The notes: generated by a model from the letters alone, not told the origin. Positions 15,649-49,622 are shown, counted from the stretch's first letter. The stretch is DNA of 64,000 nt from an uncultured Methanomassiliicoccales archaeon (GCA_963710685.1 CAVQBH010000010.1:15204-79203); one strand, 5' to 3'. Numbers and translations: made by a program.

Positions 15649-16012
15649 TCGGAAGAACCGGCAAAGGGATCAAATCCCGTCGAGGACTAGGATCTTTGGC
15701 AGGGCCACCGGCGCCCATTGTCCATCGGTTCTGCAGCGGGAAATTCCGGCTCCCAATCGTTTTCATGAACCAAGTCGACCGCTTCCGATCTAAGCACTGG
15801 TGCGGTTCGGTCCTATCTTCTCGATGCTGACCTTCCTTGGTTCACCTTGACTGCCAGTCGGATGATGCTTCCGAGCCATCTCACGATCGCCCGGTCTGGT
15901 CCGGTCTCAACAATCGAGTCGTCAAGTGATAGACGAGAACGAGGAAGAGGGCAGCGATGCCGGGCTGTGCAATTCGCAAAGAGCTTAATGCATCGTGAGG
16001 CGATGTGGTGTC

Positions 16013-16987
16013 GTGGAGATCGTCTTCCTCGGAACAGGCGGCAGCGTACCGACCAGGAACCGCAACACCAGCGCCACCGCCGTCCGCGTCGGTCCGGAGA
16101 TACTCCTGTTCGATTGCGGCGAGGGGACCCAGAGGCAGCTGATGGGTTCCACCGTATCGTTCATGAAGATCACCCGGATATTCATCACCCACCTGCACGG
16201 TGACCATTTCCTCGGCCTGCCCGGTCTGATACAATCGATGAACTTCGCCGGACGGCTGGAGCCGCTGGACATCTACGGTCCGGAGGGGACCTCCTCCACG
16301 GTCGATACCATTCTCAACCTGGGTTATTTTCAGGCCGGGTTCCAGGTGACTGGCCACGATGTCGCAGACCTGGATGTGGTGCAGGGCAAGGGCTACGGGG
16401 TCAAGGCGGTGCGCACAGACCACAGCATTCCTTCGTTCGGTTTCGTTCTGAGCGAGGAGACGCGGCCGGGCAGGTTCAACAAGGCCCGGGCCATGGAGTT
16501 GGGCGTCCCCGAAGGCCCTCTGTTCTCAAAGCTCCAGTCCGGCTCGAGGGTGACGGTGAACGGAAAGGAGGTATTGCCGGAGATGGTCATGGGCGACCCC
16601 CGGCCGGGACTCAAGATCGCATTCTCCGGAGACACCCGGCCGAGCGAGCACTTCCTCGAATCCATCCTCGGATGCGATCTGCTGGTGCATGAGGCCACCG
16701 CCGACGTCTCGCTCCAGGACAAGGCCAAGGAGTTCGGCCATTCCACCGCCCGGGACGCCGCCACCATCGCCGCCCTCGCGGGCGTCAAGGTGCTCTACCT
16801 CAACCATTTCAGCGGCAGATACGAGGACGTAGGGATGCTGGTCGACGAGGCCAGGGAGATCTTCCCCAACACCAGGGCCTCGGAGGACCTGATGGTCGTT
16901 CATGTCAACTACGACGGGACGATCATTTCAAAGCAGCTTCAGGACGTCCGAGCTGGTAATGATGCCGACGATCGACCCCTTTCTTGA
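16013..16987 (+). CDS. rnz: Ribonuclease Z (tRNA 3' endonuclease)
   Basis: EIVFLGTGGSVPTRNRNTSATAV, FDCGEGTQRQL and the HLHGDH metallo-beta-lactamase motif. GTG 16013 is preferred over GTG 15995. The 3' end overlaps the convergent gene by 60 nt. Confidence 0.9.
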   Translation: MEIVFLGTGGSVPTRNRNTSATAVRVGPEILLFDCGEGTQRQLMGSTVSFMKITRIFITHLHGDHFLGLPGLIQSMNFAGRLEPLDIYGPEGTSSTVDTILNLGYFQAGFQVTGHDVADLDVVQGKGYGVKAVRTDHSIPSFGFVLSEETRPGRFNKARAMELGVPEGPLFSKLQSGSRVTVNGKEVLPEMVMGDPRPGLKIAFSGDTRPSEHFLESILGCDLLVHEATADVSLQDKAKEFGHSTARDAATIAALAGVKVLYLNHFSGRYEDVGMLVDEAREIFPNTRASEDLMVVHVNYDGTIISKQLQDVRAGNDADDRPLS

Positions 16988-17491
16988 GACGAGGACCGCG
17001 TTGGACGCGGACAGCAATGACGTGACCACCTCGACGGCGGCCTCCTCGCTGACGATGGGGAACGAGTCCATCATGATGGAGCCGACCGTCAGTTCCCCCA
17101 GGTCCTCCATCTTCGAGCCGTCCCGGAGCAGGCTCAGTATCTTGAACTCGCTTATGCTGCCGACATGCTGGACCCCGTTGAAGACCGGGAGCTGCGAGTA
17201 GCCGCTCTCCCTCATGACCTCCGTGGCCCGCTTGATCTTCTCGCTGGATTGGATGCTGACGATGTTGGTGGAGGCGACGTCTTTGGCCCGCATGCCTTCC
17301 CGCCTCTTGCTCATCTCGTCCTGCAGTACCTCGAAGATCCTGACGACGGCCGCATAGCTGCCCTTGATGCTGCCCCTTTCCATCTTGGCGATGGTCGATT
17401 GGCTTACGCCGGAGAGTGAAGCTAGCTCCGATTGGGTGATGTCCAAGCTCTTCCTCAGTTTCTTGATTTCGATCTCATCAGGGAATTTCAT
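16928..17491 (-). CDS. XRE-type HTH transcriptional regulator with tandem CBS domains
   Basis: HTH LDITQSELASLSGVSQSTIAKMERG, followed by a CBS pair (VASTNIVSIQSSEKIKRATEVMRESGYSQLPVF ... MMDSFPIVSEEAAVEVVTSLLSASNAVLVSRKGSIVGIITSSDVLK). ATG at 17491. It is divergent from the SAM synthetase gene. Confidence 0.85.
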   Translation of the reverse strand: MKFPDEIEIKKLRKSLDITQSELASLSGVSQSTIAKMERGSIKGSYAAVVRIFEVLQDEMSKRREGMRAKDVASTNIVSIQSSEKIKRATEVMRESGYSQLPVFNGVQHVGSISEFKILSLLRDGSKMEDLGELTVGSIMMDSFPIVSEEAAVEVVTSLLSASNAVLVSRKGSIVGIITSSDVLKLL

Positions 17492-17643
17492 GGCAATAAC
17501 CACATGTTATTAGTCATATATGAATAATTGAGTCAATAGAGCTTATATGACCGAACCAAATACAACCGACCTAACTCGGTCCGTGGCCAGACCTTCCGAG
17601 GCGGGAGGCTGGGCACAGGACTGCGACTTACTCAGACAAATAG

Positions 17644-18936
17644 GTGACCATCATGGCATCCAAGCCGATTCGGAAGACTCAAGCAAAGAAGGCAGAGGCA
17701 AGGAAGATCGAGAAGAACATCATCGTCGAGAGCATGAACCTGTTGCCCATAGAGAAGCAGCGGGTCGAGCTGGTCGAACGAAAAGGCCTGGGCCATCCGG
17801 ACACGATCTCTGACGGGTTGGCGGAATCCGTCAGCCGCGCGCTGTGCCAGATGTATCTGGACCGGTTCGGGGAGGTCCTCCACCACAACACCGACCAGAA
17901 CGAGGTAGTGGGCGGCCAGAGCGCCCCCAAGTTCGGGGGCGGGAAGATGCTGGAGCCGATCTACATCGTGCTCATCGGAAGGGCGATCACCCAGGTGGAC
18001 GGCGAGAGGCTCCCGTACGCCACCACCGCCATCGGGGCGGCCAAGGACTACCTGAAGAACTTCCCCCACCTGGACGTCAACGAGGACGTCATCGTCGACT
18101 GCAAGATCGGCAAGGGAAGCATCGACCTGATCAAGAACTTCGAATCGCTCGCCGACAAGTGCAAGGTGAACGGCAACAAGAACAGCTGCATGCTGGCCAA
18201 CGACACCTCCTTCGGATGCAGTTTCGCTCCCCTTTCCCAGACCGAGACCGTGACGCTCGAGGTCGAGAGGTACATCAACGGGGCGATGAAGAAGAAGCTG
18301 AGGGAGACCGGGCAGGACGTCAAGGTCATGGCCGCCAGGAACAACGACAAGATCACCCTGACCATCGCCTGCGCCATGGTGGACAAGTTCGTTTCGGACG
18401 CTGACCACTACATCAACGTCGTCCAGGAGATGACCCAGCTGGTGTCCGATTACGCCACCAAGTTCACCAAGTACGACGTGAAGGTCGACGTGAACCACGC
18501 CGACGACTACAAGAACGGCAACTACTACCTGACCGTCACCGGGCTGAGCGCAGAGAACGGGGACGACGGCTCGGTCGGCCGCGGAAACCGGGTAAACGGA
18601 CTGATCACCCCCTACCGCTCCATGAGCATGGAGGCATCGGCCGGCAAGAACCCCATCACCCACGTGGGCAAGATGTACAACATCCTGGCCAACTGGATCG
18701 CCAGGGACATAGTCAAGGAGGCGGGCGGGGACGTGCTGGAGGCCCAGGTAAGGATACTGTCGCAGATCGGAAGGCCCATCAATGACCCACAGACCTGCAG
18801 CGTCCAGCTGATCCTGGAGCAGGGGGTTAACTTAGACAAGGCGCAGAAGAAGGCGCTCGCGGTGGCCGACAACTGGTTCGAGAACATCAACAAGGTCACG
18901 GAGAAAGTTGTAAAAGGCGAAGTGACGGTATTCTAA
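17644..18936 (+). CDS. metK: Archaeal-type S-adenosylmethionine synthetase
   Basis: NIIVESMNLLPIEKQRVELVERKGLGHPDTISDGLAES and HHNTDQNEVVGGQSAPKFGGG are hallmarks of the archaeal MAT family. There is a short basic N-terminal extension (ASKPIRKTQAKKAEARKIEK), so the start is uncertain (17644 or 17653). Confidence 0.95.
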   Translation: MTIMASKPIRKTQAKKAEARKIEKNIIVESMNLLPIEKQRVELVERKGLGHPDTISDGLAESVSRALCQMYLDRFGEVLHHNTDQNEVVGGQSAPKFGGGKMLEPIYIVLIGRAITQVDGERLPYATTAIGAAKDYLKNFPHLDVNEDVIVDCKIGKGSIDLIKNFESLADKCKVNGNKNSCMLANDTSFGCSFAPLSQTETVTLEVERYINGAMKKKLRETGQDVKVMAARNNDKITLTIACAMVDKFVSDADHYINVVQEMTQLVSDYATKFTKYDVKVDVNHADDYKNGNYYLTVTGLSAENGDDGSVGRGNRVNGLITPYRSMSMEASAGKNPITHVGKMYNILANWIARDIVKEAGGDVLEAQVRILSQIGRPINDPQTCSVQLILEQGVNLDKAQKKALAVADNWFENINKVTEKVVKGEVTVF

Positions 18937-18939
18937 GCG

Positions 18940-19524
18940 ATGAAACTCGTTGATTTGCCCAGATATGGTCCGGTGCACCGCTTCGCCGATTACCACGTCT
19001 TCAAAACCCTTTCCATCCTCTCCGATGGAAGACGCAAGGGGCGCAAGCAGCTTGCGGAAATGGTCGACATAGGCGAGGGCAGCATGCGGACGATCATCGA
19101 ATATCTCCGGGACCGCGAGATGATCGATGTCAAGCAGACCGGGGTCAAGATCGCAAGCAAGGGCCACGAGTTCCTGAGCAACCTCCCGATATACATGGAA
19201 AGGGTCGAGCCGACCGACAGCACCCTCGGTGAGCGGAGCGCCGCGGTGCTCGTCAAGGGCCTCAGCATGAAGATAAAGATGGGGGTCGAGCAGAGGGACA
19301 GCGCCATCAAGGCCGGTGCCGAAGGGGCCACCACCGTCATCGTTTCCGGGAGCCGTCTGATCGTTCCGCCGGACTATGATCTGGACAAGGAGAGGCCCGA
19401 GTTCGCCGACACGCTGCGGAGACTGCTGGCGGTGAGCGAGGGCGATGTCATCATCATCGGGACCGCCACCACCTACGATCGGGCCGAGGACGGCGCCCTG
19501 GCGGCGGCGTTCGAACTCATCTGA
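18940..19524 (+). CDS. Conserved archaeal winged-helix protein (DUF4443-like, tentative)
   Basis: 194 aa, beginning 3 nt after the metK stop. wHTH-like segment GRKQLAEMVDIGEGSMRTIIEYLRDREMIDV, then a conserved C-terminal domain. The DUF4443 assignment is from memory only. Confidence 0.55.
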   Translation: MKLVDLPRYGPVHRFADYHVFKTLSILSDGRRKGRKQLAEMVDIGEGSMRTIIEYLRDREMIDVKQTGVKIASKGHEFLSNLPIYMERVEPTDSTLGERSAAVLVKGLSMKIKMGVEQRDSAIKAGAEGATTVIVSGSRLIVPPDYDLDKERPEFADTLRRLLAVSEGDVIIIGTATTYDRAEDGALAAAFELI

Positions 19525-19777
19525 CCGGAAGATCGCCCTAAGATTTTTCCGGATAAAAGCAAATTGGTACATCCCAAGGATTCCAGACCCACGGCCGCAT
19601 CATTTTCGAGCCCCCGGGTTCTGGATTAGAAACCAGACATGACCCGGCTTAGGCAGATTCGGACCGTCGGCCAGACCACGGAAATCGCGTGGATGGAAGG
19701 GTCGATCCATTGCCATTCGATCGGACGAGGCTTGAAATATTGGATAATACATCCAATAATGACCTATTTCGGGTCAG

Positions 19778-21688
19778 GTGGAATGTAATTTGAAGTTGAG
19801 GGGAGCAATCGCTTGTCTATTGTTGGTGTCATTCATGCTGATAGCCGCCGCGCCAGTCTCAGTGGCTGCGGAAGGGACCACATGCGCGGTCCTGTTCGAT
19901 TTCGGCAATGGCGAGATATCCTGGGCGGACATCGCCTCCAACAGCACTCTGAACGCGTTCAACATGACCCAGATGGCCACCCAGAAGCTCGGTCTGGATT
20001 TTCAGTTCACCCATTATCCGTCGGGTAACTTCGTCACTAAGATAGGGGATGTGGATACCCCAGCCTCATTTGCCCAGTCCTGGTCCCTGTGGACCTGGAA
20101 CACGACCACGTCCCGGTGGGATTCCTCCATGGTCGGTCCGGACTCGATCCCCTCCACCAGCGTCCCGGCGATCGCCTACTCGTTCGGCGGGTATCCAACC
20201 CCGGCACCGCTGGCCACGCCCGAGCACCGGTACCCGTGGACCAGCTTCAGGCACGATGACCTGAACACCGGAAGCCAGCCGGTCTACGCCCCGAACAACC
20301 TCTCACTGGCCTGGAAGGTCGACCTGGGCAATGGGGCCATTGACGCTCCGATCGTTGCCTGGCAGGGATACACCGCGGTGGTGACCGGCGGAATCCTCAA
20401 CATGACGACCTACGCCTACGACACCAATTCCTCCGTCTACGTGCTGAACCAGACCGGTGCTGTGCTGTGGCACAAGGACATCGGTACAGGTTATCAGGTC
20501 GGATCTCCCCTGGTCTATGACGGAAAGCTCATCGTCCCGTCGGCGGACGGCAAGGTCTATGCCTTCAACGCGCTCACCGGGGACTCTCTCTGGACCTACG
20601 ACACCGGATCGGGGTCGCTGCACGGCGTGACCTCGTCCCCGATCGCCTACAACGGCAACTTCATCATCGCCACCGGTAACGGAAATTTCATTTCCCTGTG
20701 GCCCAACGGGACGAAGGACTGGAACATGACCATCGCACCCGGTATATACTCCTCCTCGCCGGCGGCCTCCAACGGGACGCTCTACATCGGGACCGAGGAT
20801 GGCAAGCTGGACGCCATCGCCGCGGATGGAAGCGCGGTCCAATGGTCCATCCAGATCGGGAGCAAGGTGCGCGGATCGCCGATCCTCCTGAAGGATGAGA
20901 TCGTGGTCAGTTACCTCAACTACACCGGGAACTCACCGGCCAGTGGCGGCCTGGCAGGGGTGAGCTATACCGGACAATTGCTGTGGCAGAGGTCGACCGA
21001 CGTGACACCCGGATCGCCGGTCCTCACCAAGGCCGGAATAGCCGCGGTCACGTACACCGGGATCGTGATGGTGAGTTCGGACGGCTCACTGGTCTTCAAC
21101 AGGTCGTTGGGAACCATCTTCGCCGGCGCGGCCCCGACGAGCGTGGGGGACAGCATATTCCTGGTCACGAACGAGGCGTCCAGCCGTCTGATCGCAATGA
21201 CCAACTCGGGTGAGATATACTTCCAGCGGGCCATCGTCCCGGCGCAGTACGCGTTGAGCGCCCCGACGGTCGCCGATGGTATCCTCTACATCAGCAGCGA
21301 CAACGGGAATGTCTACGCCTATCACATGAACTCTGTGGCACCGTCCGCCCATGACTACACGATGGTCCAGAACGGCCTGACGGTCAGCTTCCAGGCGAAG
21401 GTCGTGAACGGGACCCTGATCAACTACTCGTGGAACTTCGGGGACGGCAACACCAGCACCGGTCCGGCGGTCAACCACACCTATGCCCAGGCCGGAACCT
21501 ACAGCGTCGTGCTCACCGCCACCACTCCCGACGGTCAGATCCAGAACAGCACCGTGTCCGCCGTGGCCACCAACCCTAGCGCGTCAAGCGGCACGAACTC
21601 GGACATCACCGTGCTGGTCATCCTCCTGGTCGTCGTTATCCTGATCGTTGCCGTCGTCGGCTTCCTGGTGATGCGCAGGAGGAAGTAA
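19778..21688 (+). CDS. Cell-surface protein: signal peptide, DUF4430-like domain, PQQ-like beta-propeller repeats, PKD domain, C-terminal TM anchor
   Basis: Signal peptide KLRGAIACLLLVSFMLIAAAPVSVAAEG. DUF4430-like segment (FDFGNGEISWADI ... GNFVTKIGDV ... SWSLWTWNTTTSRWDSSMVG). Repeated propeller motifs (GKVYAFNALTGDSLW, GKLDAIAADGSAVQW, GNVYAYH). PKD segment (YSWNFGDGNTSTGPAVNHTYAQAGTYSVVLTATTPDG). Anchor VLVILLVVVILIVAVVGFLVMRRRK. Exact start is uncertain (GTG 19778 or TTG 19790). Confidence 0.8.
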   Translation: MECNLKLRGAIACLLLVSFMLIAAAPVSVAAEGTTCAVLFDFGNGEISWADIASNSTLNAFNMTQMATQKLGLDFQFTHYPSGNFVTKIGDVDTPASFAQSWSLWTWNTTTSRWDSSMVGPDSIPSTSVPAIAYSFGGYPTPAPLATPEHRYPWTSFRHDDLNTGSQPVYAPNNLSLAWKVDLGNGAIDAPIVAWQGYTAVVTGGILNMTTYAYDTNSSVYVLNQTGAVLWHKDIGTGYQVGSPLVYDGKLIVPSADGKVYAFNALTGDSLWTYDTGSGSLHGVTSSPIAYNGNFIIATGNGNFISLWPNGTKDWNMTIAPGIYSSSPAASNGTLYIGTEDGKLDAIAADGSAVQWSIQIGSKVRGSPILLKDEIVVSYLNYTGNSPASGGLAGVSYTGQLLWQRSTDVTPGSPVLTKAGIAAVTYTGIVMVSSDGSLVFNRSLGTIFAGAAPTSVGDSIFLVTNEASSRLIAMTNSGEIYFQRAIVPAQYALSAPTVADGILYISSDNGNVYAYHMNSVAPSAHDYTMVQNGLTVSFQAKVVNGTLINYSWNFGDGNTSTGPAVNHTYAQAGTYSVVLTATTPDGQIQNSTVSAVATNPSASSGTNSDITVLVILLVVVILIVAVVGFLVMRRRK

Positions 21689-21692
21689 GGGA

Positions 21693-22199
21693 ATGATGAA
21701 GCTCAGGCCAAGGGACCTGATCCTGATGGCCGTCGCGGTGGTCATCGTACTGGTGATCGCATTGTTCGGGTTTCCGAACACCGGCAGCACCGGGGTCACC
21801 GTCAGGGGCAACCTGACGATCGAACTGGCCGACGCCCCCTCCCCGATCAACCAGGGTATGAACACCACATGGACGCTGGTCGGCGGGAGCTGGACCAACA
21901 CCACGACCGTCAATTCGCTGGGACAGACGGTGTGGATCTTTGAGAACGTCACCAGCAATTCCAGCTGCTATGACCAGCTGTTGTCCGCCTCTCGGATCGC
22001 CGGATTCAGCATCGAATCTCAGAACCAGACGCTGGGGCTGATCGTCACGTCCATCGGCGGCGCCTCGAACCTGGAGTTCGAGGGCCGGGCCTGGCAGTAC
22101 TACGTGAACGGGGTGTACGCCAATCGGGCGTGCAACATCGTCACGGTGGCCAATGGTGACAACGTGGTGTGGAAATACCAACCGAACCAGATGGGGTGA
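21693..22199 (+). CDS. DUF4430 domain protein with N-terminal membrane anchor
   Basis: TM segment LILMAVAVVIVLVIALFG, then DUF4430 hallmarks CYDQLLSASRIAGFSIE ... GLIVTSIGGASN ... RAWQYYVNGVYANRACNIVTVANGDNVVWKY. Confidence 0.8.
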   Translation: MMKLRPRDLILMAVAVVIVLVIALFGFPNTGSTGVTVRGNLTIELADAPSPINQGMNTTWTLVGGSWTNTTTVNSLGQTVWIFENVTSNSSCYDQLLSASRIAGFSIESQNQTLGLIVTSIGGASNLEFEGRAWQYYVNGVYANRACNIVTVANGDNVVWKYQPNQMG

Positions 22200-23071
22200 G
22201 GGCACTGTTCTCCCCGTACCAGGACAAGGACTCCAGGATCCATCGGATGGACGCGAGGCCGAAAATGGTCTTCGTACTCTCGATATTCCTGCTCTCCATC
22301 CTGGTATCGGACATATTCTTTTTGACCGTCTTCTTCGTGTTCATCATGATCCTGGTGGCGGAGAGCAAGGTGCTGCGCTCCACCCTCGGACTCCTGAAGT
22401 ACACGGTGTACGTGGCCGCCTTCCTCTTCGCTTTCAGCATTCTGTTCTCGCAGGGAAGTCACGTCCTGGTGACGCTCGGCCCCCTCTCGATCAAGGAAGA
22501 GTCCTTGCTCTTCGCCACCAGCATGTGCATGAGATTGTTCCTGGCCATCAGCGCGTTCGCCGTTCTCACCTTCACCGTGCACCCGGACCAGTCCCTGCAG
22601 ATAATGTCCAAGTTCGGGATCAAGTCCATGACCGGGCTCTCGATCGCCACCCGCATGTACCCGACCATCGCCGCGGATTCGGCGAACATCGAGGACGCCA
22701 TGCGGGCCCGGGGGGTGGAGTTCGACGATGGCAACCTGATCCAGAAGGCCAGGGCCAAGGCGCCGGTCATGATGCCGCTGCTGCTGAACTCGATGGATCG
22801 TTCCATGGAGATCGCCGAGGCCATGGAGAGTCGAGGTTTCGGGGCGGGGTCGAGGACCCATTATTTTGACCGGCCCCTCCTCCTCAGGGACAAGGTCATG
22901 ATCGCCTCCTTTGTCGCCGCCCTGCCCTTCGGCATCATCATGTTCGTCCTGGGCTACGGCAACGTCAATTACATTTCTGGAGCGCCGTTGACCATAACCG
23001 CCATAGGAACGCTGGTGGCGTTCCTGGAGCTGATGTTCTACGTGCCAATCCTGGTGGGGGCCAAGGTATGA
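22196..23071 (+). CDS. ecfT: ECF transporter transmembrane (T) component, CbiQ/EcfT family
   Basis: Multi-TM protein with the EcfT coupling region EDAMRARGVEFDDGN ... LLLNSMDRSMEIAEAMESRGFG. GTG 22196 overlaps the upstream TGA (GTGA). The track start 22169 lies inside the previous gene. Confidence 0.85.
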   Translation: MRALFSPYQDKDSRIHRMDARPKMVFVLSIFLLSILVSDIFFLTVFFVFIMILVAESKVLRSTLGLLKYTVYVAAFLFAFSILFSQGSHVLVTLGPLSIKEESLLFATSMCMRLFLAISAFAVLTFTVHPDQSLQIMSKFGIKSMTGLSIATRMYPTIAADSANIEDAMRARGVEFDDGNLIQKARAKAPVMMPLLLNSMDRSMEIAEAMESRGFGAGSRTHYFDRPLLLRDKVMIASFVAALPFGIIMFVLGYGNVNYISGAPLTITAIGTLVAFLELMFYVPILVGAKV

Positions 23072-24528
23072 TCGACATCGAGAACTTCTCGTTCACGTAC
23101 AGCGCGGTGGGAAGGCCGGTGCTGAGGGACGTCAGCCTGAGGATCGGGGAGGGCGAGTTCGTCCTGATCGTGGGACATTCCGGATCGGGCAAATCCACCC
23201 TGTGCCGCTCCATGAACGGCCTGGTGCCGCACTTCTACGGCGGCAAGATAAACGGGCACGTCACCGTCGACGGAAGGGACACCAGGAAGACTCCGCCGAA
23301 CCAGCTGGCCGGCACGGTGGGAATGGTGTTCCAGGACCCGGAGAACCAGTTGGTGATGACCAACGTGGAGAACGAGATGGCCTTCGGCCTGGAGAACATG
23401 GCGCTGCCCCTGCCGGAGATGAGGGAACGCATCGCCCAGTATTCTGAATACTTTGACCTGGCCCGGTTCTTCAAACGGTTCATTCCGGAGCTTTCCGGGG
23501 GCGAGAAACAAAAGGTGGCGCTCGCTTCCGTCATCGCCATGAACCCGAAGTACATCGTGCTCGACGAACCGACCTCCCAGCTCGATGAGGAGACGGCCTC
23601 GCTCTTCCTCGATTTCCTGCAGAAGCTGAATCGGGAGCACAACATCGCCATCATACTGGTGGAGCACCGGTTGGAGAGGTGCCTGGGATACGCCGACCGG
23701 ATCGTTTACATGAAGGACGGGACGGTGGCGGCGGACGGCACGAAGGCGGAAATGCTGCCCCTGCTGAAGCAGGAGGGGCTGATCGCCGATTTCCACCGCT
23801 CCATCGGGTCCGTGGGTACCGGGGAGGTCGTCGTCTCCGCGGAGAACATAAGCTTCCGTTACAGCAAGGAGGACGTCCTTGACGGGCTGGACCTCCAGGT
23901 CCGCCGGCAGGAGGTCCTGGCCATCATAGGGCTGAACGGCTGCGGCAAGTCGACCCTGCTCAAGCATCTCAACGGCATCCTCAGGCCCAAGAACGGCATG
24001 GTGCAGGTCATGGGCCGGGACATCGCCAAGGCCACCACCGCCAGCCTCGCCCGGGACATCGGCTATCTGGGACAGAACCCGAACAATTACCTGTTCGAGG
24101 AGACGCTAGAGAAGGAGCTGGAGTTCACTCTCCGGAACCTTAAGATCGACCGGTCCGAATGGAAGGAAAGGATGGACTGGGCATTGGAAATGCTGAACCT
24201 GGAAAAATACCGCAACACGTTCCCCCGGGAGCTCAGCTGCGGTGAGCGGGAACGGGCGGCCCTGGCCTCGATCATCGTGGGCAGGCCGAAGATCCTGGTC
24301 CTGGACGAACCGACCCGGGGGCTGGACTACGCTAACAAACTGAAATTGGCGACCATCCTGGAATCGCTGAAGGCGGTGGGCATGACCACCATCATAGTGA
24401 CCCACGACTACCGTTTCGTGGCCGAGCACGCCACCCGGGTGATGTCGCTCCGGGGCGGGCGGCTGGTGCATACGCCGATCGAGGACGTCGTGGTCCTGGC
24501 CAAGGAGATCGGAGGGGTGGAGGTATGA
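23068..24528 (+). CDS. ecfA: ECF transporter fused double ATPase (EcfA1-EcfA2)
   Basis: Two ABC cassettes. First: GHSGSGKST / LSGGEKQKV / IVLDEPTSQLD. Second: GLNGCGKST / LSCGERERA / LVLDEPTRGLD. There are ATGA overlaps at both ends. Confidence 0.9.
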   Translation: MIDIENFSFTYSAVGRPVLRDVSLRIGEGEFVLIVGHSGSGKSTLCRSMNGLVPHFYGGKINGHVTVDGRDTRKTPPNQLAGTVGMVFQDPENQLVMTNVENEMAFGLENMALPLPEMRERIAQYSEYFDLARFFKRFIPELSGGEKQKVALASVIAMNPKYIVLDEPTSQLDEETASLFLDFLQKLNREHNIAIILVEHRLERCLGYADRIVYMKDGTVAADGTKAEMLPLLKQEGLIADFHRSIGSVGTGEVVVSAENISFRYSKEDVLDGLDLQVRRQEVLAIIGLNGCGKSTLLKHLNGILRPKNGMVQVMGRDIAKATTASLARDIGYLGQNPNNYLFEETLEKELEFTLRNLKIDRSEWKERMDWALEMLNLEKYRNTFPRELSCGERERAALASIIVGRPKILVLDEPTRGLDYANKLKLATILESLKAVGMTTIIVTHDYRFVAEHATRVMSLRGGRLVHTPIEDVVVLAKEIGGVEV

Positions 24529-25298
24529 AGGTCAAATGGAGCCTGGTCCTCACCATCCTAGCCATGGGCATGGTCGTCCTCATCCTCTACCTAGCGGTAT
24601 TCGCCAGTTCCAAATTGGCCGACTACACCGCATTCCTGTCCTTCATACTGCTGATCCTGATCATCGGCATCATGTTCGCGAAGTTCGAGGAGTCGGAGAT
24701 CAGCTCCAAGGAGGTGGCCCTGATAGGCATCCTGGGAGCGATAACCGCCGCCTCCAGGATACCGTTCGCGGCTCTCCCGAACATCAAGCCATGCACCTTC
24801 CTTATCATCGTATCGGGGCTGGTGTTCGGGGCGCTGGCCGGTGCGATGGTGGGAGCGATGACCGCCGGCGTCTCGAACCTGTTCTTCGGGCAGGGCCCGT
24901 GGACCGCCTGGGAAATGGTCGCTTGGGCGATGGTGGGCATGGTCGCCGGGTATCTGGGAAAGCGGATGAAGGGTATCACCGTAAGGGACATCATACTGCT
25001 CGGGATAATCCTGGGGATGGCCTACAACACGCTCATGGACTTCAGCAGCTGGATAACGTTCTACAAGAGCGACCCGAACCTGCTGGTGCCCACCTTCGTG
25101 GCGGGGCTGCCCTTCGGGGCTCTGCACGTCTTCGGCAACGTGGTCTTCGCAGTGATCCTGGGCAAGCCAGTGCTCACCATGTTCCAGCGCTTCCAGCGCC
25201 GGACCCGGATCTACTATGACAACCACGAGGAGGACACCGGTCCCCCTCCCCCGGGGAACGACCCTTCGCGATCGGCCAGGGATGAAGCGGCCATATGA
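24525..25298 (+). CDS. Putative ECF transporter substrate-specific (S) component
   Basis: Polytopic membrane protein (about 6 TM helices; [31 protein letters not shown] is typical of S components). It is translationally coupled to ecfA. Substrate is unknown. Confidence 0.65.
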
Positions 25299-27397
25299 TA
25301 GTTCGTCCTATTTCTTGAGGCCGAGCTGGTGCTCCATCTCATCCACTTCACTGGTCGGTTTGTGGCACGCTCCGCCGCTGCAGACATAGGCGGTTGGCTT
25401 TCCCTCCGCGGCATCTTGTCCCGGATGTGCGCCAACAACGGACATTCGGCCTTCTTCCCGTCACGGATCGGGTTGAGCATCATGATGGTGTAGGGCAGAT
25501 AGAGGGCGTTGGAGGCGTGGATCATCGCCCTGGTACGCACGTCCATGGGATCGCCGGAGATGACCAGTTCCTGGACGGGTTTCAACAGCATCCTGAGGCC
25601 GATCACGAAGAAGGACAGCGCGTCCGGCACCTGGCTGAGATAGAAGTTGTAGTACTTCGAGGAGGCCAGCGCCAGGTCCCTCATGGTCAGGTCATCGATC
25701 ATCGTGGAAAGCACGGCCAGATCGTAGACCATCACCGAATTGGCGGAAGGCATGGCCCCATCCGATATCTCCTTGCTGAGCATCACCAGATCGTCCTTGG
25801 CGATGGAGTTGTAGAAGCCTCCTTTCTCGTCCCCGAAGAGGTCGATCGTCCTCTTCATGTAATCCAACGCCCGGTTCAGGTAACGGTACTCGAACGTGGC
25901 CTGGTAAAGCTCCAGAAGCCCCCAGATATAGTAAGCGTGGTCGGATAGCAGGCCGTTCACCCGGGCCTCCCCCTCGCGGTACATGTGGCACAGGCCCCCC
26001 TCGGGCGAGGCCGAGTATCCCTCGATCGAATCCACCGCCCGCTTCGCCGCCTGCAGGTACCGTTCCTCCCCGAACGCCCTCCCTGCCTTGGCCAGGGCGG
26101 CGATCATGAGCCCGTTCCAATCGGTGAGGACCTTGTCGTCCCGGGCCGGCCGGATCCTCAGCTCCCGCACCCCCTTCAATCGCTCCGCGCACGTCTCCAG
26201 ATAATCGGTCAGTTCGGCCGGGCTCATGTCGAACTTGGTCGCGAGGGTGGCGATGTCCGCGGTGAGGTGGAGCAGGTTGCGGTCGGTGTCCCCTTCGATG
26301 CCCGAACCGATGGTCCCCTCGGCGTGCACGTCGAAGCACTCCATGAAGACCTCCGGCCTCATGTCCCCCAGCACCTCCAGCACATCCTCCTGGGTCCAGG
26401 TGTAGAACTTGCCCTCCACCCCTTCGCTGTCCGCATCCTCCGAGGCGCAGAACGCCCCGTGCTCGGAAATGAGGTCCTTGAGCACGTACTCGATGGTCCC
26501 CCGGGCCACCTTCCTGAAGTCGTCCCTGCCGGTGGCCTGGTAGGCCTCCGTGTACGCCATGCAGATCAGTGCCTGGTCATAGAGCATCTTTTCGAAATGC
26601 GGCAGTATCCACTGCCCGTCGGTGGAGTACCGGTGGAATCCTCCCCCTATGTGGTCGTGGATCCCTCCGAGCATCATGTTCGTGAGGGTCCAGTCCGCCA
26701 TCTTGAGGGCCTCGGGGTTGCCCGTATCGTACCAGTACCGGAGCAGGAGGATGGCCTTGTGCGGGATCGGGAACTTGGGCGATTTCTCGAATCCCCCGTA
26801 CTTCGGCTCGTAGGTCTTCCTCAGGCCTTGAAATGCCTCATCCAGGTACCTGATGTTCGGTTCGCCCGGCCGGACGATATCCATGGCGGCGATGTCCCTC
26901 AGGATGGTCGACGTGATGGCCTGGATCTCGCCCTGCTCCTCCTTCCATGCGGTGGAGATGGCGTTCAGGACGGTGATGATGTCCGACATGCCGAACTGCC
27001 CAGTTCGGGGGATGTAGGTGGCGGCAAAGAAAGGGATCTTCTCCGGGGTCATCACGATGGTCAGCGGCCAGCCCCCCCCGCCGGTCATGGCCTGACAGGC
27101 CTTCATGTAAAGCTCGTCGATGTCCGGCCTCTCTTCCCGGTCCACCTTGATGGAGATGAAACCCTCGTTCAGGACCCGGGCCACATCTTCGTCCTCGAAC
27201 GACTCCCTTTCCATCACATGGCACCAATGGCAGGCGGAATAGCCGATGGAAAGGAACACCGGCCTTCCGCTCCGCTTCGCCTCGGAGAAGGCGGTGTCGC
27301 TCCAAGGGTACCAATCGACCGGGTTGTGGGAATGCATGATGAGATACGGGCTCTTCTCATTCACAAGATGGTTGGAGAATTTCGGCTTGAGCTCCAT
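25214..27397 (-). CDS. Thioredoxin-domain protein, DUF255/YyaL family (N-acylglucosamine-epimerase-like fold); 3' end apparently frameshifted
   Basis: [61 protein letters not shown] is a canonical DUF255 N-terminus. The last ~65 codons as sequenced are non-homologous. A shifted frame gives the family-typical end [35 protein letters not shown], with TAG at 25308..25310. Confidence 0.9.
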
Positions 27398-28063
27398 GGA
27401 CGACCTCTGAATGGTACGGATTCGAGCCGTGAATAATTAAGCTATGCGTGCTGGATGAGAAATTTGGACATCGCCGATGATCGAATCTTAAAAAGGTAGA
27501 GGTCCGAATCGACCCCGTACCTCGGTTTGGAAGGCGTTTGGAGCTTGTTGGGCCGGTGGCTCACCGCTCCTCTGCGATCCTCTCCTCCTAAGAAAGTCCG
27601 CTTTCGATCCCTTGTATCCAGCTCTTGATGTTCAGGAGCTGACTGAAAGAGCCAATGCGTTTTGCGATATTAATGCTTTTCCAGTTTTCGGCCTCGGTTG
27701 GATGCATAATTGACTGCTCACAGCCTCTAAAATTAGCATTCTGGCCATGCATCGGCTGGATGGATAGACCATCCCGTCAATTAATAATATACAATAAATA
27801 TTATTAGCATGGACGACAGGTCAAGGAAAGAGAAGGACCGGAATCCTGCACTCTGAAGAATCCTAGTCTCCAAACCCGAGGACACCACCAAGACGTAACC
27901 GGAGCGGACAGGGATTTGCGTTGGAATTGAGATGATCAATCCAGCGGAGTTGTGGCTGTTCGATAGCCGCCGTTTGGAAAATCTAAATGATGTAGTATTG
28001 TCTTAACCACCAGACGCCATTGGGGGAAGAATAGCTAGTGCCGTTCAGATCGAGGTATTCACC

Positions 28064-48587: not shown

Positions 48588-49622
48588 TCACTTGATGTAT
48601 CCATTGGCGATCACCACCGCTTCGGCGGCGTCCCTTGCATAGAGGTCGGCCCCGACCGACCTCCATAGATCGTCCACGGTGTTGAACGGATATCCTTCCA
48701 CCACGATCTTGATGTCATTGAGCGTGGGATCATTCCGGACCTGTTCCACCATCGATCGCACCTTGGTGACGTTGAAGCCCATGGTGGCGGAAATGAACAG
48801 CCCGGCAGCCTTGCCTTGTTTCAGCGCGGATATCACCGCGTCCGTGGGGGTGTTCGAGCCGAGATAGCGGACGTCCCATCCATCCATTTCCAGGAAGTCC
48901 GACACCATCCGTGCTCCCGTCTCATGGAGCTCGTTGTTGACGCAGGTGACGATGAGAACCCCCTTGACAGATCTCTTGGCGATGATGTTGAGATACATCT
49001 GTGACATCAGCTGCTGGGTGACCCCCGAGGCAAAGTGCTCCTGGGCGACGGAGATGATCCTGTGCTGCCAAAGGCGGCCTATCTCGTGCTGCACCGGTTG
49101 GAAGACATCGAGGTAGAGTTCCTTCAGTTCCATGCCGTTCTCCAGAGCTGTCTTTACGATGGCGTTGGCTTCCTGACGGTCATAGGCCAGCACCTTATCC
49201 AGATACTGGGCGGCCAGCCTTCCCGTTTTCAGACCGGTGTCGATGAAGGTAGGAACGCCCTCGGACATCGCATCGAACTCATCCAGGGCTGCCTGCATTA
49301 TATTGTCTGTCTTTTTCTGGAATTGACCTTCGAGCTCTTTCTGACATTCTTTCCTGATGTGCTCAAGATTCTCCCGGAAAATACTAGGCGGGATGTTTAT
49401 GTGGCTGAGGAGCACTTTTGCCCATGCCACATAGTTGATGAACAATTGTGGTGAATCGATGAGTACCGCGTCGAATAGAAAGTTGAGATGATATTTCGTG
49501 TCCCGTATGCAATGGTCACTTTTGCCCCGGTAGGCCGTGAAGACCTCGGGGCGCTCCCTCCCGTGCTCTTCGATCGCCTGAAGCGCCAGGCGGTCGATCG
49601 TTTCGTAAGGGTCGTTAATCAA
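48588..49622 (-). CDS. Cobalamin-binding protein with CarH-type light-sensing-module signature and unassigned helical N-terminal domain
   Basis: Four-helix-bundle motif LWQHRIISVAQEH (Wx9EH, nt 49035..49070). Rossmann B12 domain VLIVTCVNNELHETGARMVSDFLEMDGWDVRYLG (ExHxxG; His codon at 48924..48926). There is no DNA-binding domain; the first ~150 aa are helical and unassigned. Confidence 0.8.
   Translation of the reverse strand: MINDPYETIDRLALQAIEEHGRERPEVFTAYRGKSDHCIRDTKYHLNFLFDAVLIDSPQLFINYVAWAKVLLSHINIPPSIFRENLEHIRKECQKELEGQFQKKTDNIMQAALDEFDAMSEGVPTFIDTGLKTGRLAAQYLDKVLAYDRQEANAIVKTALENGMELKELYLDVFQPVQHEIGRLWQHRIISVAQEHFASGVTQQLMSQMYLNIIAKRSVKGVLIVTCVNNELHETGARMVSDFLEMDGWDVRYLGSNTPTDAVISALKQGKAAGLFISATMGFNVTKVRSMVEQVRNDPTLNDIKIVVEGYPFNTVDDLWRSVGADLYARDAAEAVVIANGYIK

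Follow-up and report, generated by a model that had tools for sequence, protein, structure and literature searches.

The locus considered here, in a 64,000-nucleotide stretch of DNA from an uncultured Methanomassiliicoccales archaeon (the window), raises the question of what its apparent transporter imports, and what part is played by the two anchored proteins encoded with it. Positions 19778-25298 contain five genes on the same strand, encoding in order the surface protein P1, the smaller protein P2, EcfT, a fused EcfA-EcfA' ATPase and an S component. The original prediction spoke of six same-strand genes but itself listed five; the genes are indeed co-directional, and the sixth neighbour on this strand, a wHTH-DUF4443 gene (18940-19524), lies outside the interval. 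The 4-nt overlaps reported for the last four genes are seen at all three junctions (GTGA 22196-22199, ATGA 23068-23071 and ATGA 24525-24528), and P1 and P2 are separated by a gap of 4 nt. Because the same five genes occur in unchanged order in 14 of the 14 related archaeal loci examined, from several families, the arrangement is not due to chance. Wetland metatranscriptome contigs match parts of P1, EcfT and the ATPase at 90-99% identity, which may be read as a weak sign of cassette expression.

Table 1. Features of the cassette and its upstream region, numbered from the first letter of the window.
Feature	Position	Strand	Description
Palindrome TTGGATAATACATCCAA	19740..19756	.	Candidate operator of a corrinoid regulon, over the likely core promoter
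P1	19778..21688	+	Anchored surface protein (Pfam, hydrophobic ends, sequons, homologues)
P1 N-terminal domain	19874..20212	+	About residues 33-145; TC/IF/haptocorrin beta-domain fold
P1 propeller	20303..21325	+	PQQ_2/BamB-type beta-propeller
P1 PKD domain	21341..21556	+	PF00801, PF18911
P2	21693..22199	+	168 aa; N-terminal TM anchor, small beta-strand module, DUF4430 domain
EcfT	22196..23071	+	CbiQ-family TM coupling subunit; GTG 22196 start overlaps P2 stop
Fused EcfA-EcfA' ATPase	23068..24528	+	486 aa, two ABC_tran domains
S component	24525..25298	+	CbrT family; ECF-ribofla_trS and DUF6580 matches

The predicted transporter core is borne out by family profiles for each of its subunits. EcfT matches PF02361 (E 6.1e-25) and has six hydrophobic segments; its score against TIGR02454 (69 bits) falls under the equivalog cut-off, and it is therefore classed as an EcfT in the broad sense, outside CbiQ itself. 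The fused ATPase exceeds the cut-offs of both TIGR04520 (399.7 bits against 315) and TIGR04521 (379.1 bits against 330), so that EcfT, two ECF-type ATPase domains and the S, T and A components are encoded in one operon, as in dedicated (group I) ECF transporters. The best solved relative of the S component, searched as a single sequence against the PDB, is CbrT (6FNP_A, E 1.1e-8), and the profile of its family matches the same chain over residues 4-180 of 182 with E 3.8e-32 and 115 bits; the next S component after CbrT is HmpT (4HZU, E 1e-4), and no match to a CbiM or queuosine-type S component was obtained in PDB searches with limits of E 10 and E 1. This comparison had been set beforehand as a refutation test, and the protein groups with CbrT and not with CbiM or the queuosine class. 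With 1192 cluster representatives as relatives at E < 1e-10, it is placed by these sequence matches in the CbrT family; it has in addition an N-terminal hydrophobic stretch of about 55 residues (two segments) and a Pro-rich tail.

P1 is 636 aa long counted from GTG 19778, with TTG 19790 the more likely start. It is composed, in order, of a hydrophobic signal peptide, a transcobalamin-beta-like (SLBB) domain, a PQQ propeller of the 8-blade type, a PKD stalk and a C-terminal TM anchor followed by RRRK; 35 full-length homologues were found, and every named one is from Methanomassiliicoccales. The propeller matches PF13360 (PQQ_2) at residues 176-516 (E 1.8e-28), and PF13570 with E 1.3e-35 but under the Pfam cut-off. 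The PKD domain (residues 522-593; PF00801 E 1.3e-17, PF18911 E 2.1e-16) is likely to act as the stalk. Propeller, PKD domain and anchor are thus as predicted, but the DUF4430-like label of the N-terminal domain needs qualification, as this domain has no Pfam match, DUF4430 included, even at E 10. Its putative kinship to DUF4430 rests on fold and profile evidence: in Foldseek searches with the AF2 model (mean pLDDT 83.5, core >90) the 16 matches listed through rank 18 are all TC/IF/HC beta domains or the DUF4430 protein 3U7Z (E 4e-4 to 4e-3), VIA-align gives Z scores of 11.3-12.6 against these structures and 6.8 against the next fold, and hhalign against the P2 family gives a probability of 83% and E 9e-6.

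P2 is the membrane-anchored DUF4430 protein that was predicted, with an N-terminal TM helix and a match to PF14478 at residues 93-163 (E 1.6e-12, 48.1 bits against a cut-off of 23.8); by the Pfam gathering score, DUF4430 membership belongs to P2 and not to the P1 N-terminal domain. In an alignment of homologues the beta-strand module is present in one to three copies. The AF2 model of P2 (mean pLDDT 84.9) gave a Foldseek result like that of P1, the 17 matches listed through rank 19 all being TC/IF/HC beta domains or 3U7Z, and the suggested structural comparison of the accessory domains with transcobalamin thus finds the transcobalamin beta-domain fold in both of these domains. N-x-S/T sequons number 17 in P1 and 6 in P2, and 0-2 in EcfT, the ATPase and the S component, a concentration that fits an extracellular position of P1 and P2. 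We propose that P1 is a glycoprotein-like anchored surface protein and candidate distal corrinoid catcher, and that P2 is a membrane-proximal corrinoid relay.

Counterparts of the cassette are found in bacteria. Forty-two bacterial loci were chosen for an S-component relative at 31-43% identity, and in 23 of them a same-strand cobalamin riboswitch (RF00174) lies no more than 7 kb upstream; the only other riboswitch class upstream is a TPP element in one locus (L047), where it belongs to an interposed ThiT gene. Most of the loci have a P2-profile match about 2.6-3.2 kb upstream of the S gene. Scanning of the first two genes showed, at four of these loci, a surface-anchored DUF4430/toroid or PQQ-propeller protein and then a DUF4430 protein; downstream are ORFs whose sizes match EcfT and EcfAA, and then the S component; at a fifth scanned locus the second gene encodes a sortase. 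Prenyltrans/SQHop_cyclase (toroid) matches are present in several of the bacterial counterparts, and the linkage of a DUF4430 protein to EcfT-EcfAA-S extends over Bacillota, Actinomycetota and archaea.

For the archaeal cassette itself, positions 16000-28000 gave no Rfam hit with an E of 1 or less, in agreement with the original report that no cobalamin riboswitch is seen upstream. There is instead a 17-bp palindrome, TTGGAT-N5-ATCCAA, separated at its 3' end from the TTG 19790 start of P1 by 33 nt. Each of the 15 Methanomassiliicoccales loci examined (15/15) has a copy no more than 300 nt ahead of P1, and the consensus over the archaeal loci is aGTTGGAT-N5-ATCCAACt. The genome (2.84 Mb) has 11 strict sites where base composition predicts 0.09; some of them stand 34-38 nt ahead of the cbiM (in cbiMNQO), cobQ and btuF-like gene starts, and the palindrome also occurs in the divergent cbi / sirC-hemA region. 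Over this genome and its relatives it is found upstream of cbiMNQO, the cbi operon, cobQ, cobT-like and btuF-fecCD genes, the cobT-like genes together with chelatase genes joining the set in relatives. The same regulon recurs in other genera, even in genomes that have no cassette, and the enrichment is limited to the order Methanomassiliicoccales. A few sites adjoin genes with no obvious B12 link, encoding an amino-acid permease, a radical SAM protein and a PNPOx-like protein.

Cobalt uptake, corrin synthesis and BtuF-type uptake are what bacterial B12-riboswitch regulons classically contain, and Rodionov et al. in 2003 reportedly described, in some archaea, a 'CBL-box' as the site of a hypothetical B12 regulator. 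The cassette is probably controlled by a DNA-binding regulator at the palindrome and not by a riboswitch. We think it unlikely that the palindrome responds to cobalt or to metals generally, or is a promoter element free of ligand control: the presence of cbiMNQO and a chelatase subunit in the marked set, and of the few genes not obviously linked to B12, would suit such a role, but BtuF-FecCD, cobQ and cobT-like genes, which concern finished or late corrinoids, carry the palindrome in several genera, and the marked set is that of the classical riboswitch regulon. Were the palindrome not corrinoid-responsive, the cassette's role as a transporter would stand, and its regulation would be uninformative as to the substrate. 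The candidate order-specific B12 operator is a fresher result than the transporter.

The CbrT match, the folds, the bacterial riboswitches and the shared palindrome all support the original prediction of an archaeal extracellular corrinoid-scavenging device feeding an ECF importer, and we consider it likely that the cassette is a dedicated ECF importer of corrinoids (cobamides and/or cobinamide-type precursors). In the mechanism that we envisage, glycosylated P1, held out on its PKD stalk and C-terminal membrane anchor, would catch extracellular corrinoid with the transcobalamin-beta-like domain, and the propeller may provide a second face, as the alpha-toroid does in transcobalamin. P2, anchored N-terminally near the membrane, would take over the ligand by its DUF4430 domain and hand it to the CbrT-type S component, which would move it across; EcfT and the fused EcfA-EcfA' would drive this step. 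A corrinoid-sensing regulator bound at TTGGAT-N5-ATCCAA over the core promoter would repress the cassette; since the palindrome is common to genes of cobalt uptake, corrin synthesis, lower-ligand attachment and BtuF-type proteins, these routes of supply would all close at once under ample corrinoid.

With the query used, CbiC is not seen in 14 of 20 cassette-bearing genomes, which must therefore import corrin rings, and over 41 relatives the four cells of cassette against CbiC (6, 14, 8 and 13) show no clean anticorrelation. The genome studied here has CbiC, CbiD, CobS, a BtuF-like gene and three FecCD-type permeases, and for this reason does not obviously appear to need a further corrinoid route; Burroughs et al. 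raised the same caveat for archaea (PMC1796856). We note that two of the three permeases sit in a region that seems to have been assembled twice.

An alternative in which the ECF-CbrT core imports corrinoid alone, and P1 and P2 are not relays but serve in envelope tethering, in assembly, or in sequestering or storing corrinoid from competitors, seems to us quite improbable. It can draw on the activity of the Lactobacillus delbrueckii ECF-CbrT in proteoliposomes without any accessory protein (PMC5997447), on the usual role of PQQ/BamB-type propellers as scaffolds, and on the proposal by Burroughs et al. that extra domains provide surface tethering (PMC1796856); yet the DUF4430-to-transporter link is kept across two bacterial phyla and archaea, P1 and P2 both have the fold that contacts B12 in transcobalamin, and the bacterial operons lie under the B12 riboswitch as one unit. 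Import of another tetrapyrrole (heme, F430 or a precursor), or of 'a distinct metabolite' as Burroughs et al. put it for archaea, is very improbable. In its favour, the only such operon with genetic data, L. sakei lsa1836-1840, is linked to heme uptake and not B12, its deletion reportedly affecting heme uptake (bioRxiv 10.1101/864751), and the present genome probably makes the corrin ring itself. Against it, the family profile of the S component matches CbrT, hemin is no competitor of Cbl in ECF-CbrT (PMC5997447), cobalamin riboswitches precede more than half of the bacterial counterparts, and the palindrome marks a cobamide-specific set (cobalt uptake, cobQ, cobT-like, btuF).

The preferred reading is corrinoid import by the whole cassette. 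The transporter is of a type already known, and its archaeal form is new. The original statement that this combination of modules is not characterised does not survive, as SLBB-propeller fusions sharing an operon with a second SLBB paralogue and CbiO/CbiQ genes were predicted to be B12 scavengers by Burroughs, Balaji, Iyer and Aravind in 2007 (PMC1796856), and lsa1836-1840 has been studied. The operons of the 2007 prediction share with the cassette a secreted or anchored SLBB protein (the transcobalamin C-terminal domain), sometimes propeller-fused, the second paralogue and CbiO/CbiQ-like genes; there, however, the S component was not seen as CbrT-like, regulatory evidence was not given, and archaeal B12 scavenging was left undecided, a caveat to which the shared operator and the carriers lacking CbiC speak. 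The L. sakei operon likewise has five genes, for an S component, a fused A-A', EcfT and two exported transcobalamin-fold proteins (bioRxiv 10.1101/864751), but its second binder is an alpha/alpha-toroid (the TC alpha domain), whereas P1 fuses a PQQ propeller and a PKD domain to a beta-like domain.

The ECF-CbrT of L. delbrueckii (6FNP; Santos et al. 2018, PMC5997447), which transports cobalamin and cobinamide in proteoliposomes, has the same S family, an EcfT and two ATPase domains, and the same two substrates would be expected here. It differs in being a group II CbrT that borrows a shared ECF module, whereas the archaeal module is dedicated, with fused ATPases, the extra N-terminal residues of the S component and a candidate DNA palindrome for regulation; CbrT has no characterised extracellular partner, whereas two surface proteins are co-encoded here. 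With transcobalamin, intrinsic factor and haptocorrin (2BB5, 2PMV, 4KKI, 5NP4) the P1 N-terminal domain and P2 share the beta-domain fold (Z about 11-12.6) at 8-18% sequence identity, and the human TC beta domain alone has been crystallised with cyanocobalamin (5NP4). In transcobalamin the B12 pocket is completed by a toroid and the route is receptor endocytosis; P1 and P2, in contrast, have no Prenyltrans/SQHop_cyclase Pfam match to indicate an alpha6/alpha6 toroid, are membrane-anchored and would feed an ECF transporter, and the cassette resembles a split or variant transcobalamin and is not a member of that family.

The likeness to BtuG and BtuH of Bacteroides is one of idea, namely surface capture of B12 ahead of a transporter (PMC10404256, PMC8941943). 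BtuG is a propeller and PKD domains have been analysed alongside btuH, and the BtuH B12-binding domain is said to have 'no known structural homologs' (PMC8941943); the proposed use of BtuH as a comparator for DUF4430 is to that extent misplaced, BtuH not being a DUF4430 protein. For the proposed BtuG parallel, a PDB sequence search with the P1 propeller gave no link to BtuG; its matches were confined to designer propellers and propellers of the PQQ/BamB type, with BamB and 3HXJ among them. Both Bacteroides proteins are lipoproteins that work for the TonB-dependent BtuB. To our knowledge, archaea have no outer membrane. Finally, as in the bacterial RF00174 regulons, cobalt uptake, cbi/cob synthesis, BtuF-type uptake and the ECF cassette appear to be co-controlled; the bacterial regulons use an RNA element, whereas the archaeal cassette, with Rfam matches absent from the region searched, would be governed by a 17-bp DNA palindrome at its promoter.

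The five co-directional genes that occupy positions 19778-25298 are best explained as a corrinoid importer, a reading in which we place considerable though not complete confidence. They encode the anchored surface protein P1, the membrane-anchored DUF4430 protein P2, EcfT, a fused EcfA-EcfA' ATPase (EcfAA) and an S component. The original prediction spoke of six genes while itself listing five, and the cassette has only these five, although a sixth same-strand neighbour does exist, encoding a winged-helix (wHTH) DUF4443 protein. The 4-nt overlaps it described are seen at the P2/EcfT, EcfT/EcfAA and EcfAA/S junctions, provided that EcfT starts at GTG 22196. N-x-S/T sequons number 17 in P1 and six in P2, as against 0-2 in the three cytoplasmic or membrane subunits, a distribution that is compatible with P1 and P2 being extracellular glycoproteins. 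Coordinates of the features discussed here are collected in the table.

Features of the window, followed by candidate operator sites and CobS genes elsewhere in the source genome (G000; C-numbers are its contigs)
Feature	Position	Strand	Description
wHTH-DUF4443 protein	18940-19524	+	Full-length homologue of Pyrococcus PH0730 (PDB 2P8T), E 8e-15
Palindrome TTGGATAATACATCCAA	19740-19756		Upstream of P1
P1	GTG 19778	+	636 aa; N-terminal hydrophobic signal, ~110-residue region without Pfam match, PQQ_2-type propeller, PKD, C-terminal hydrophobic anchor ending RRRK
P2	21693-22199	+	168 aa; N-terminal helix, DUF4430 above Pfam cut-off
EcfT, then fused EcfA-EcfA', then S component	Downstream of P2	+	
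CarH-like protein	48588-49622	-	344 aa; B12-binding_2 and B12-binding domains, ~135-residue N-terminal region without domain assignment
Site	38 nt before cbiM		cbiMNQO operon
Two sites	Divergent region		Between cbi operon (CbiT-like methylase, tetrapyrrole methylases, CbiD, CbiC) and sirC-hemA
Site	34 nt before gene		cobQ-type amidotransferase gene
Site, one mismatch	36 nt before gene		BtuF-like binding protein gene, then FecCD
Site	Near cobS		
CobS	C3:5248-5976 and C4:97886-98614		

The source genome, which judging by source names belongs to a Methanomassiliicoccales archaeon, is 2.84 Mb in size and 94% complete. Freshwater, lake and bioanode metagenomes contain DNA nearly identical to the window, and a peat metagenome holds that of a close relative (90-99% identity); RNA evidence for the cassette is confined to short metatranscriptome contigs of 90-99% identity, for which DNA carry-over is possible. 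At the distal end of the cassette a DUF255/thioredoxin ORF on the minus strand (25214-25440) and the S-component gene converge and share 85 nt. An extra A follows position 25407 in contigs of all four sequencing runs compared, so that the 1-nt frame change there is probably peculiar to this assembly or an error in it.

The substrate class of the S component had been set in advance as the decisive point, and it favours cobalamin. Compared as a single protein with all PDB sequences, it has its best match in 6FNP chain A (E 1.1e-8). That entry is the L. delbrueckii vitamin B12 transporter ECF-CbrT (PMC5997447). An exhaustive search recovered 1192 cluster representatives at E < 1e-10, and a family profile built from 53 of these matches 6FNP_A over its full length at 3.8e-32, with the next S component, 4HZU, at 1e-4. 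ECF-CbrT moves both cobalamin and cobinamide, and hemin does not inhibit it (PMC5997447). Fusions are frequent among members of the S family, some with alpha/alpha-toroid domains, with or without SLH repeats, and others with the ATPases. The alpha/alpha-toroid is also how the alpha domain of transcobalamin is folded.

Scanning species-representative genomes for the pattern yielded 80 loci with a relative of the S component, mostly in Bacillota and Actinomycetota. For 42 bacterial loci the 7 kb upstream were compared with Rfam, and in 23 of them, a lower bound because several contigs end early, a cobalamin riboswitch lies there on the same strand as the genes. In example loci the riboswitch is followed by a large surface-anchored protein (in an SLH, CWB2 or sortase context) that contains DUF4430 with or without an alpha-toroid, and in one Actinomycetota locus this surface protein carries a PQQ propeller. 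The second gene encodes a DUF4430 protein in four of the five loci scanned and a sortase in the fifth; in the loci scanned, the first two genes are followed by ORFs whose sizes fit EcfT and EcfAA and by the S component, and most loci have a match to the P2 profile some 2.6-3.2 kb upstream of S. Only a single locus, L047, has a riboswitch of a non-cobalamin class (TPP), and it fails as a counter-example, a ThiT gene being inserted directly behind the switch, just ahead of the DUF4430-ECF genes.

The fold evidence for the two extracellular proteins points the same way. AF2 models of the N-terminal domain of P1 (P1-N; core pLDDT > 90) and of P2 (mean pLDDT 84.9) were searched with Foldseek, and all top rows are beta domains of transcobalamin, intrinsic factor or haptocorrin, or the DUF4430 protein 3U7Z. 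VIA-align gives P1-N a Z of 11.3-12.6 against those beta domains and 3U7Z, and 6.8 against the next match, a generic beta-grasp fold. The P1-N and P2 families match each other with 83% probability in a profile-profile comparison, and in the proteins of other organisms the P1-N profile matches regions also matched by the P2 (DUF4430) profile. P1-N and P2 are connected by fold and profile methods only: BLASTP of one against the other gave nothing meaningful, phmmer searches of the PDB with either returned no relevant match, and P1-N matches nothing in Pfam up to E 10. The description of this part of P1 as 'DUF4430-like' is therefore right by fold, but the domain is not a member of the Pfam family.

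Pfam detected no alpha-toroid in the cassette proteins. BtuG had been named as a precedent for surface beta-propellers that capture B12; the P1 propeller is of the PQQ/BamB type by sequence, and no link to BtuG was found. Neither BtuG nor BtuH is among the sequence and fold match lists, an absence that says nothing on relatedness, and BtuH has, by its authors' account, a different fold (PMC8941943). The propeller protein of the Actinomycetota locus L038 resembles P1 weakly, and the two propellers may have been recruited independently. In P2 a small beta-strand module (N-x-T-T-W-T...G-x-W) separates the TM helix from the DUF4430 domain; most homologues have one copy and two 285-aa homologues (P0043 and P0050) have three, and the module appears to behave like a variable-length spacer.

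To our knowledge archaea are without B12 riboswitches, and a search for a cobalamin riboswitch upstream of the cassette came back empty, no Rfam family matching around it at E up to 1. Each of the 15 archaeal loci has the palindrome TTGGAT-N5-ATCCAA, a candidate operator, no more than 300 nt upstream of P1, those with the cassette in a different neighbourhood included, and the consensus over these loci is aGTTGGAT-N5-ATCCAACt. The source genome has 11 strict sites, where 0.09 are expected from base composition, and a few of its sites adjoin genes without an evident link to B12. The pairing of sites with genes recurs in other genera, genomes lacking the cassette among them, with cobT-like and chelatase genes added. 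Enrichment is limited to the order: every same-order genome of a phylum-wide draw has three to five sites, the other orders of the class, represented by five genomes, have none, and elsewhere in the phylum counts are mostly 0-1; controls with the pattern reversed gave 0 sites. Another genome, G025, scanned separately from this draw, has no site. The spacing from site to start codon is constant at 33-38 nt, from which we infer that promoters with short leaders have the site across their TATA/BRE region, and which points to TTG 19790 as the likely start of P1.

Seemingly identical cobS/btuF-fecCD copies, with equal scores and the same palindrome, are found in the source genome at C3:3448 and C4:96086. 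They are probably one region assembled twice, and the site and gene counts there would thus be inflated by one. A palindrome with an atypical spacer (CGAGA/TCTCG) is conserved in two genomes of the genus (G000 C15:230252 and G006 C1:2120870), 460 nt from the next gene, which encodes a 454-aa protein without a Pfam match. An archaeal 'CBL-box' was reportedly proposed by Rodionov et al. in 2003; apart from possible overlap with it, the palindrome regulon is, as far as could be checked, new to the literature.

Several proteins come into question as regulators. The CarH-like protein, in which no DNA-binding domain was recognised, is a possible corrinoid sensor of the regulon. A 318-aa protein of genome G006 that carries two winged helices of AsnC/HTH_24 type (L127 274-1230) is encoded divergently from a palindrome-preceded cobT-like gene, and is a candidate factor of the regulon. 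The wHTH-DUF4443 protein, for which hhalign indicates no relation to DUF4430 (0.4%), is strongly conserved, with 61-95% identity among the 120 matches listed, all from Methanomassiliicoccales where named. Its gene comes immediately after that for the archaeal SAM synthetase, both in the window and in the nine related loci in which the pair was detected; next to the cassette it is missing from five of 14 related loci. It is a weak candidate for the regulator of the palindrome, and could regulate the SAM synthetase or, less likely, the adjoining cassette.

Searched by tblastn with the window's proteins, 14 of 14 loci from related genomes keep the gene order P1-P2-EcfT-EcfAA-S; they come from several genera and from no fewer than four families within the order, and the S component is present in about half of 41 relatives sampled. 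Positions 19740-25298 were compared with other loci. In the same-genus loci L019, L020, L023, L025 and L026, the flanking SAM synthetase, DUF4443 and DUF255 genes are 78-94% identical to those of the window, and the five cassette proteins only 35-60%. Cassettes of other genera (L014-L017, L027) are closer to the window's (43-81%) and in part lie in different neighbourhoods. It looks as if the whole cassette was replaced in place by recombination or transfer within the order.

The source genome has CbiC, two CbiD and CobS matches, a BtuF-like gene, and three FecCD permease matches, two of them in the seemingly doubly assembled region; the cassette would therefore be an additional salvage route. 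No CbiC, a corrin-ring marker, was found in 14 of 20 cassette-bearing genomes. Across the 41 relatives, which as kin are not independent, cassette and CbiC show no clean anticorrelation; two families with CbiC in all sampled genomes are without the cassette, and in one family that lacks CbiC each of the four sampled genomes carries the cassette, a pattern that is suggestive, if not clean. Methyl-reducing methanogens of this order rely on corrinoid proteins for every methyl transfer into methanogenesis, and with so many carriers lacking the ring marker, the source of corrinoid therefore bears on methane output from wetlands, peat, lakes and guts.

The corrinoid-import reading thus draws support from the CbrT-like S component, the transcobalamin beta-domain folds, the bacterial riboswitches and the shared palindrome; the relay role of P1 and P2 and an operator that responds to corrinoid are inferences. 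The balance is about even for a broader proposal, that the whole Methanomassiliicoccales corrinoid economy is under one protein-operated site, TTGGAT-N5-ATCCAA, with a putative corrinoid-sensing regulator, and that P1 represents a new B12-binding architecture, its transcobalamin-like beta domain being partnered by a PQQ-type propeller instead of an alpha-toroid. If true, the regulon would span cobalt uptake, ring synthesis, amidation, lower-ligand attachment, BtuF-type uptake and the ECF cassette, and would do in archaea what the B12 riboswitch regulon does in bacteria. The palindrome offers a direct handle, through DNA-affinity capture, on how archaea sense B12. The cassette is a concrete, testable uptake route, and P1 and P2 provide small, well-predicted domains fit for binding assays; we know of no biochemical demonstration of extracellular B12 capture outside Bacteroides.

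Burroughs et al. 2007 (PMC1796856) defined a transcobalamin-like SLBB clade. They described members fused to toroids, Ig-like domains and a beta-propeller, operons that hold a second SLBB paralogue, and a linkage with CbiO/CbiQ genes. They proposed B12 scavenging, with the caution that B12 synthesis is frequent among the archaeal carriers, which might use the proteins to scavenge something else (PMC1796856). On their question of whether the archaeal versions handle B12, the shared palindrome provides regulatory evidence. The combination of modules had been thought uncharacterised, which is true only in part: the layout was predicted in 2007 and an operon of L. sakei has been studied, but the archaeal propeller-PKD form is new. 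That operon, lsa1836-1840, is tied to heme uptake (bioRxiv 10.1101/864751) and follows the same logic as the cassette, although its beta-like and alpha-like proteins are separate. From its known relatives the cassette differs in being archaeal, in having a propeller and PKD where they have a toroid, and in its dedicated fused ECF module.
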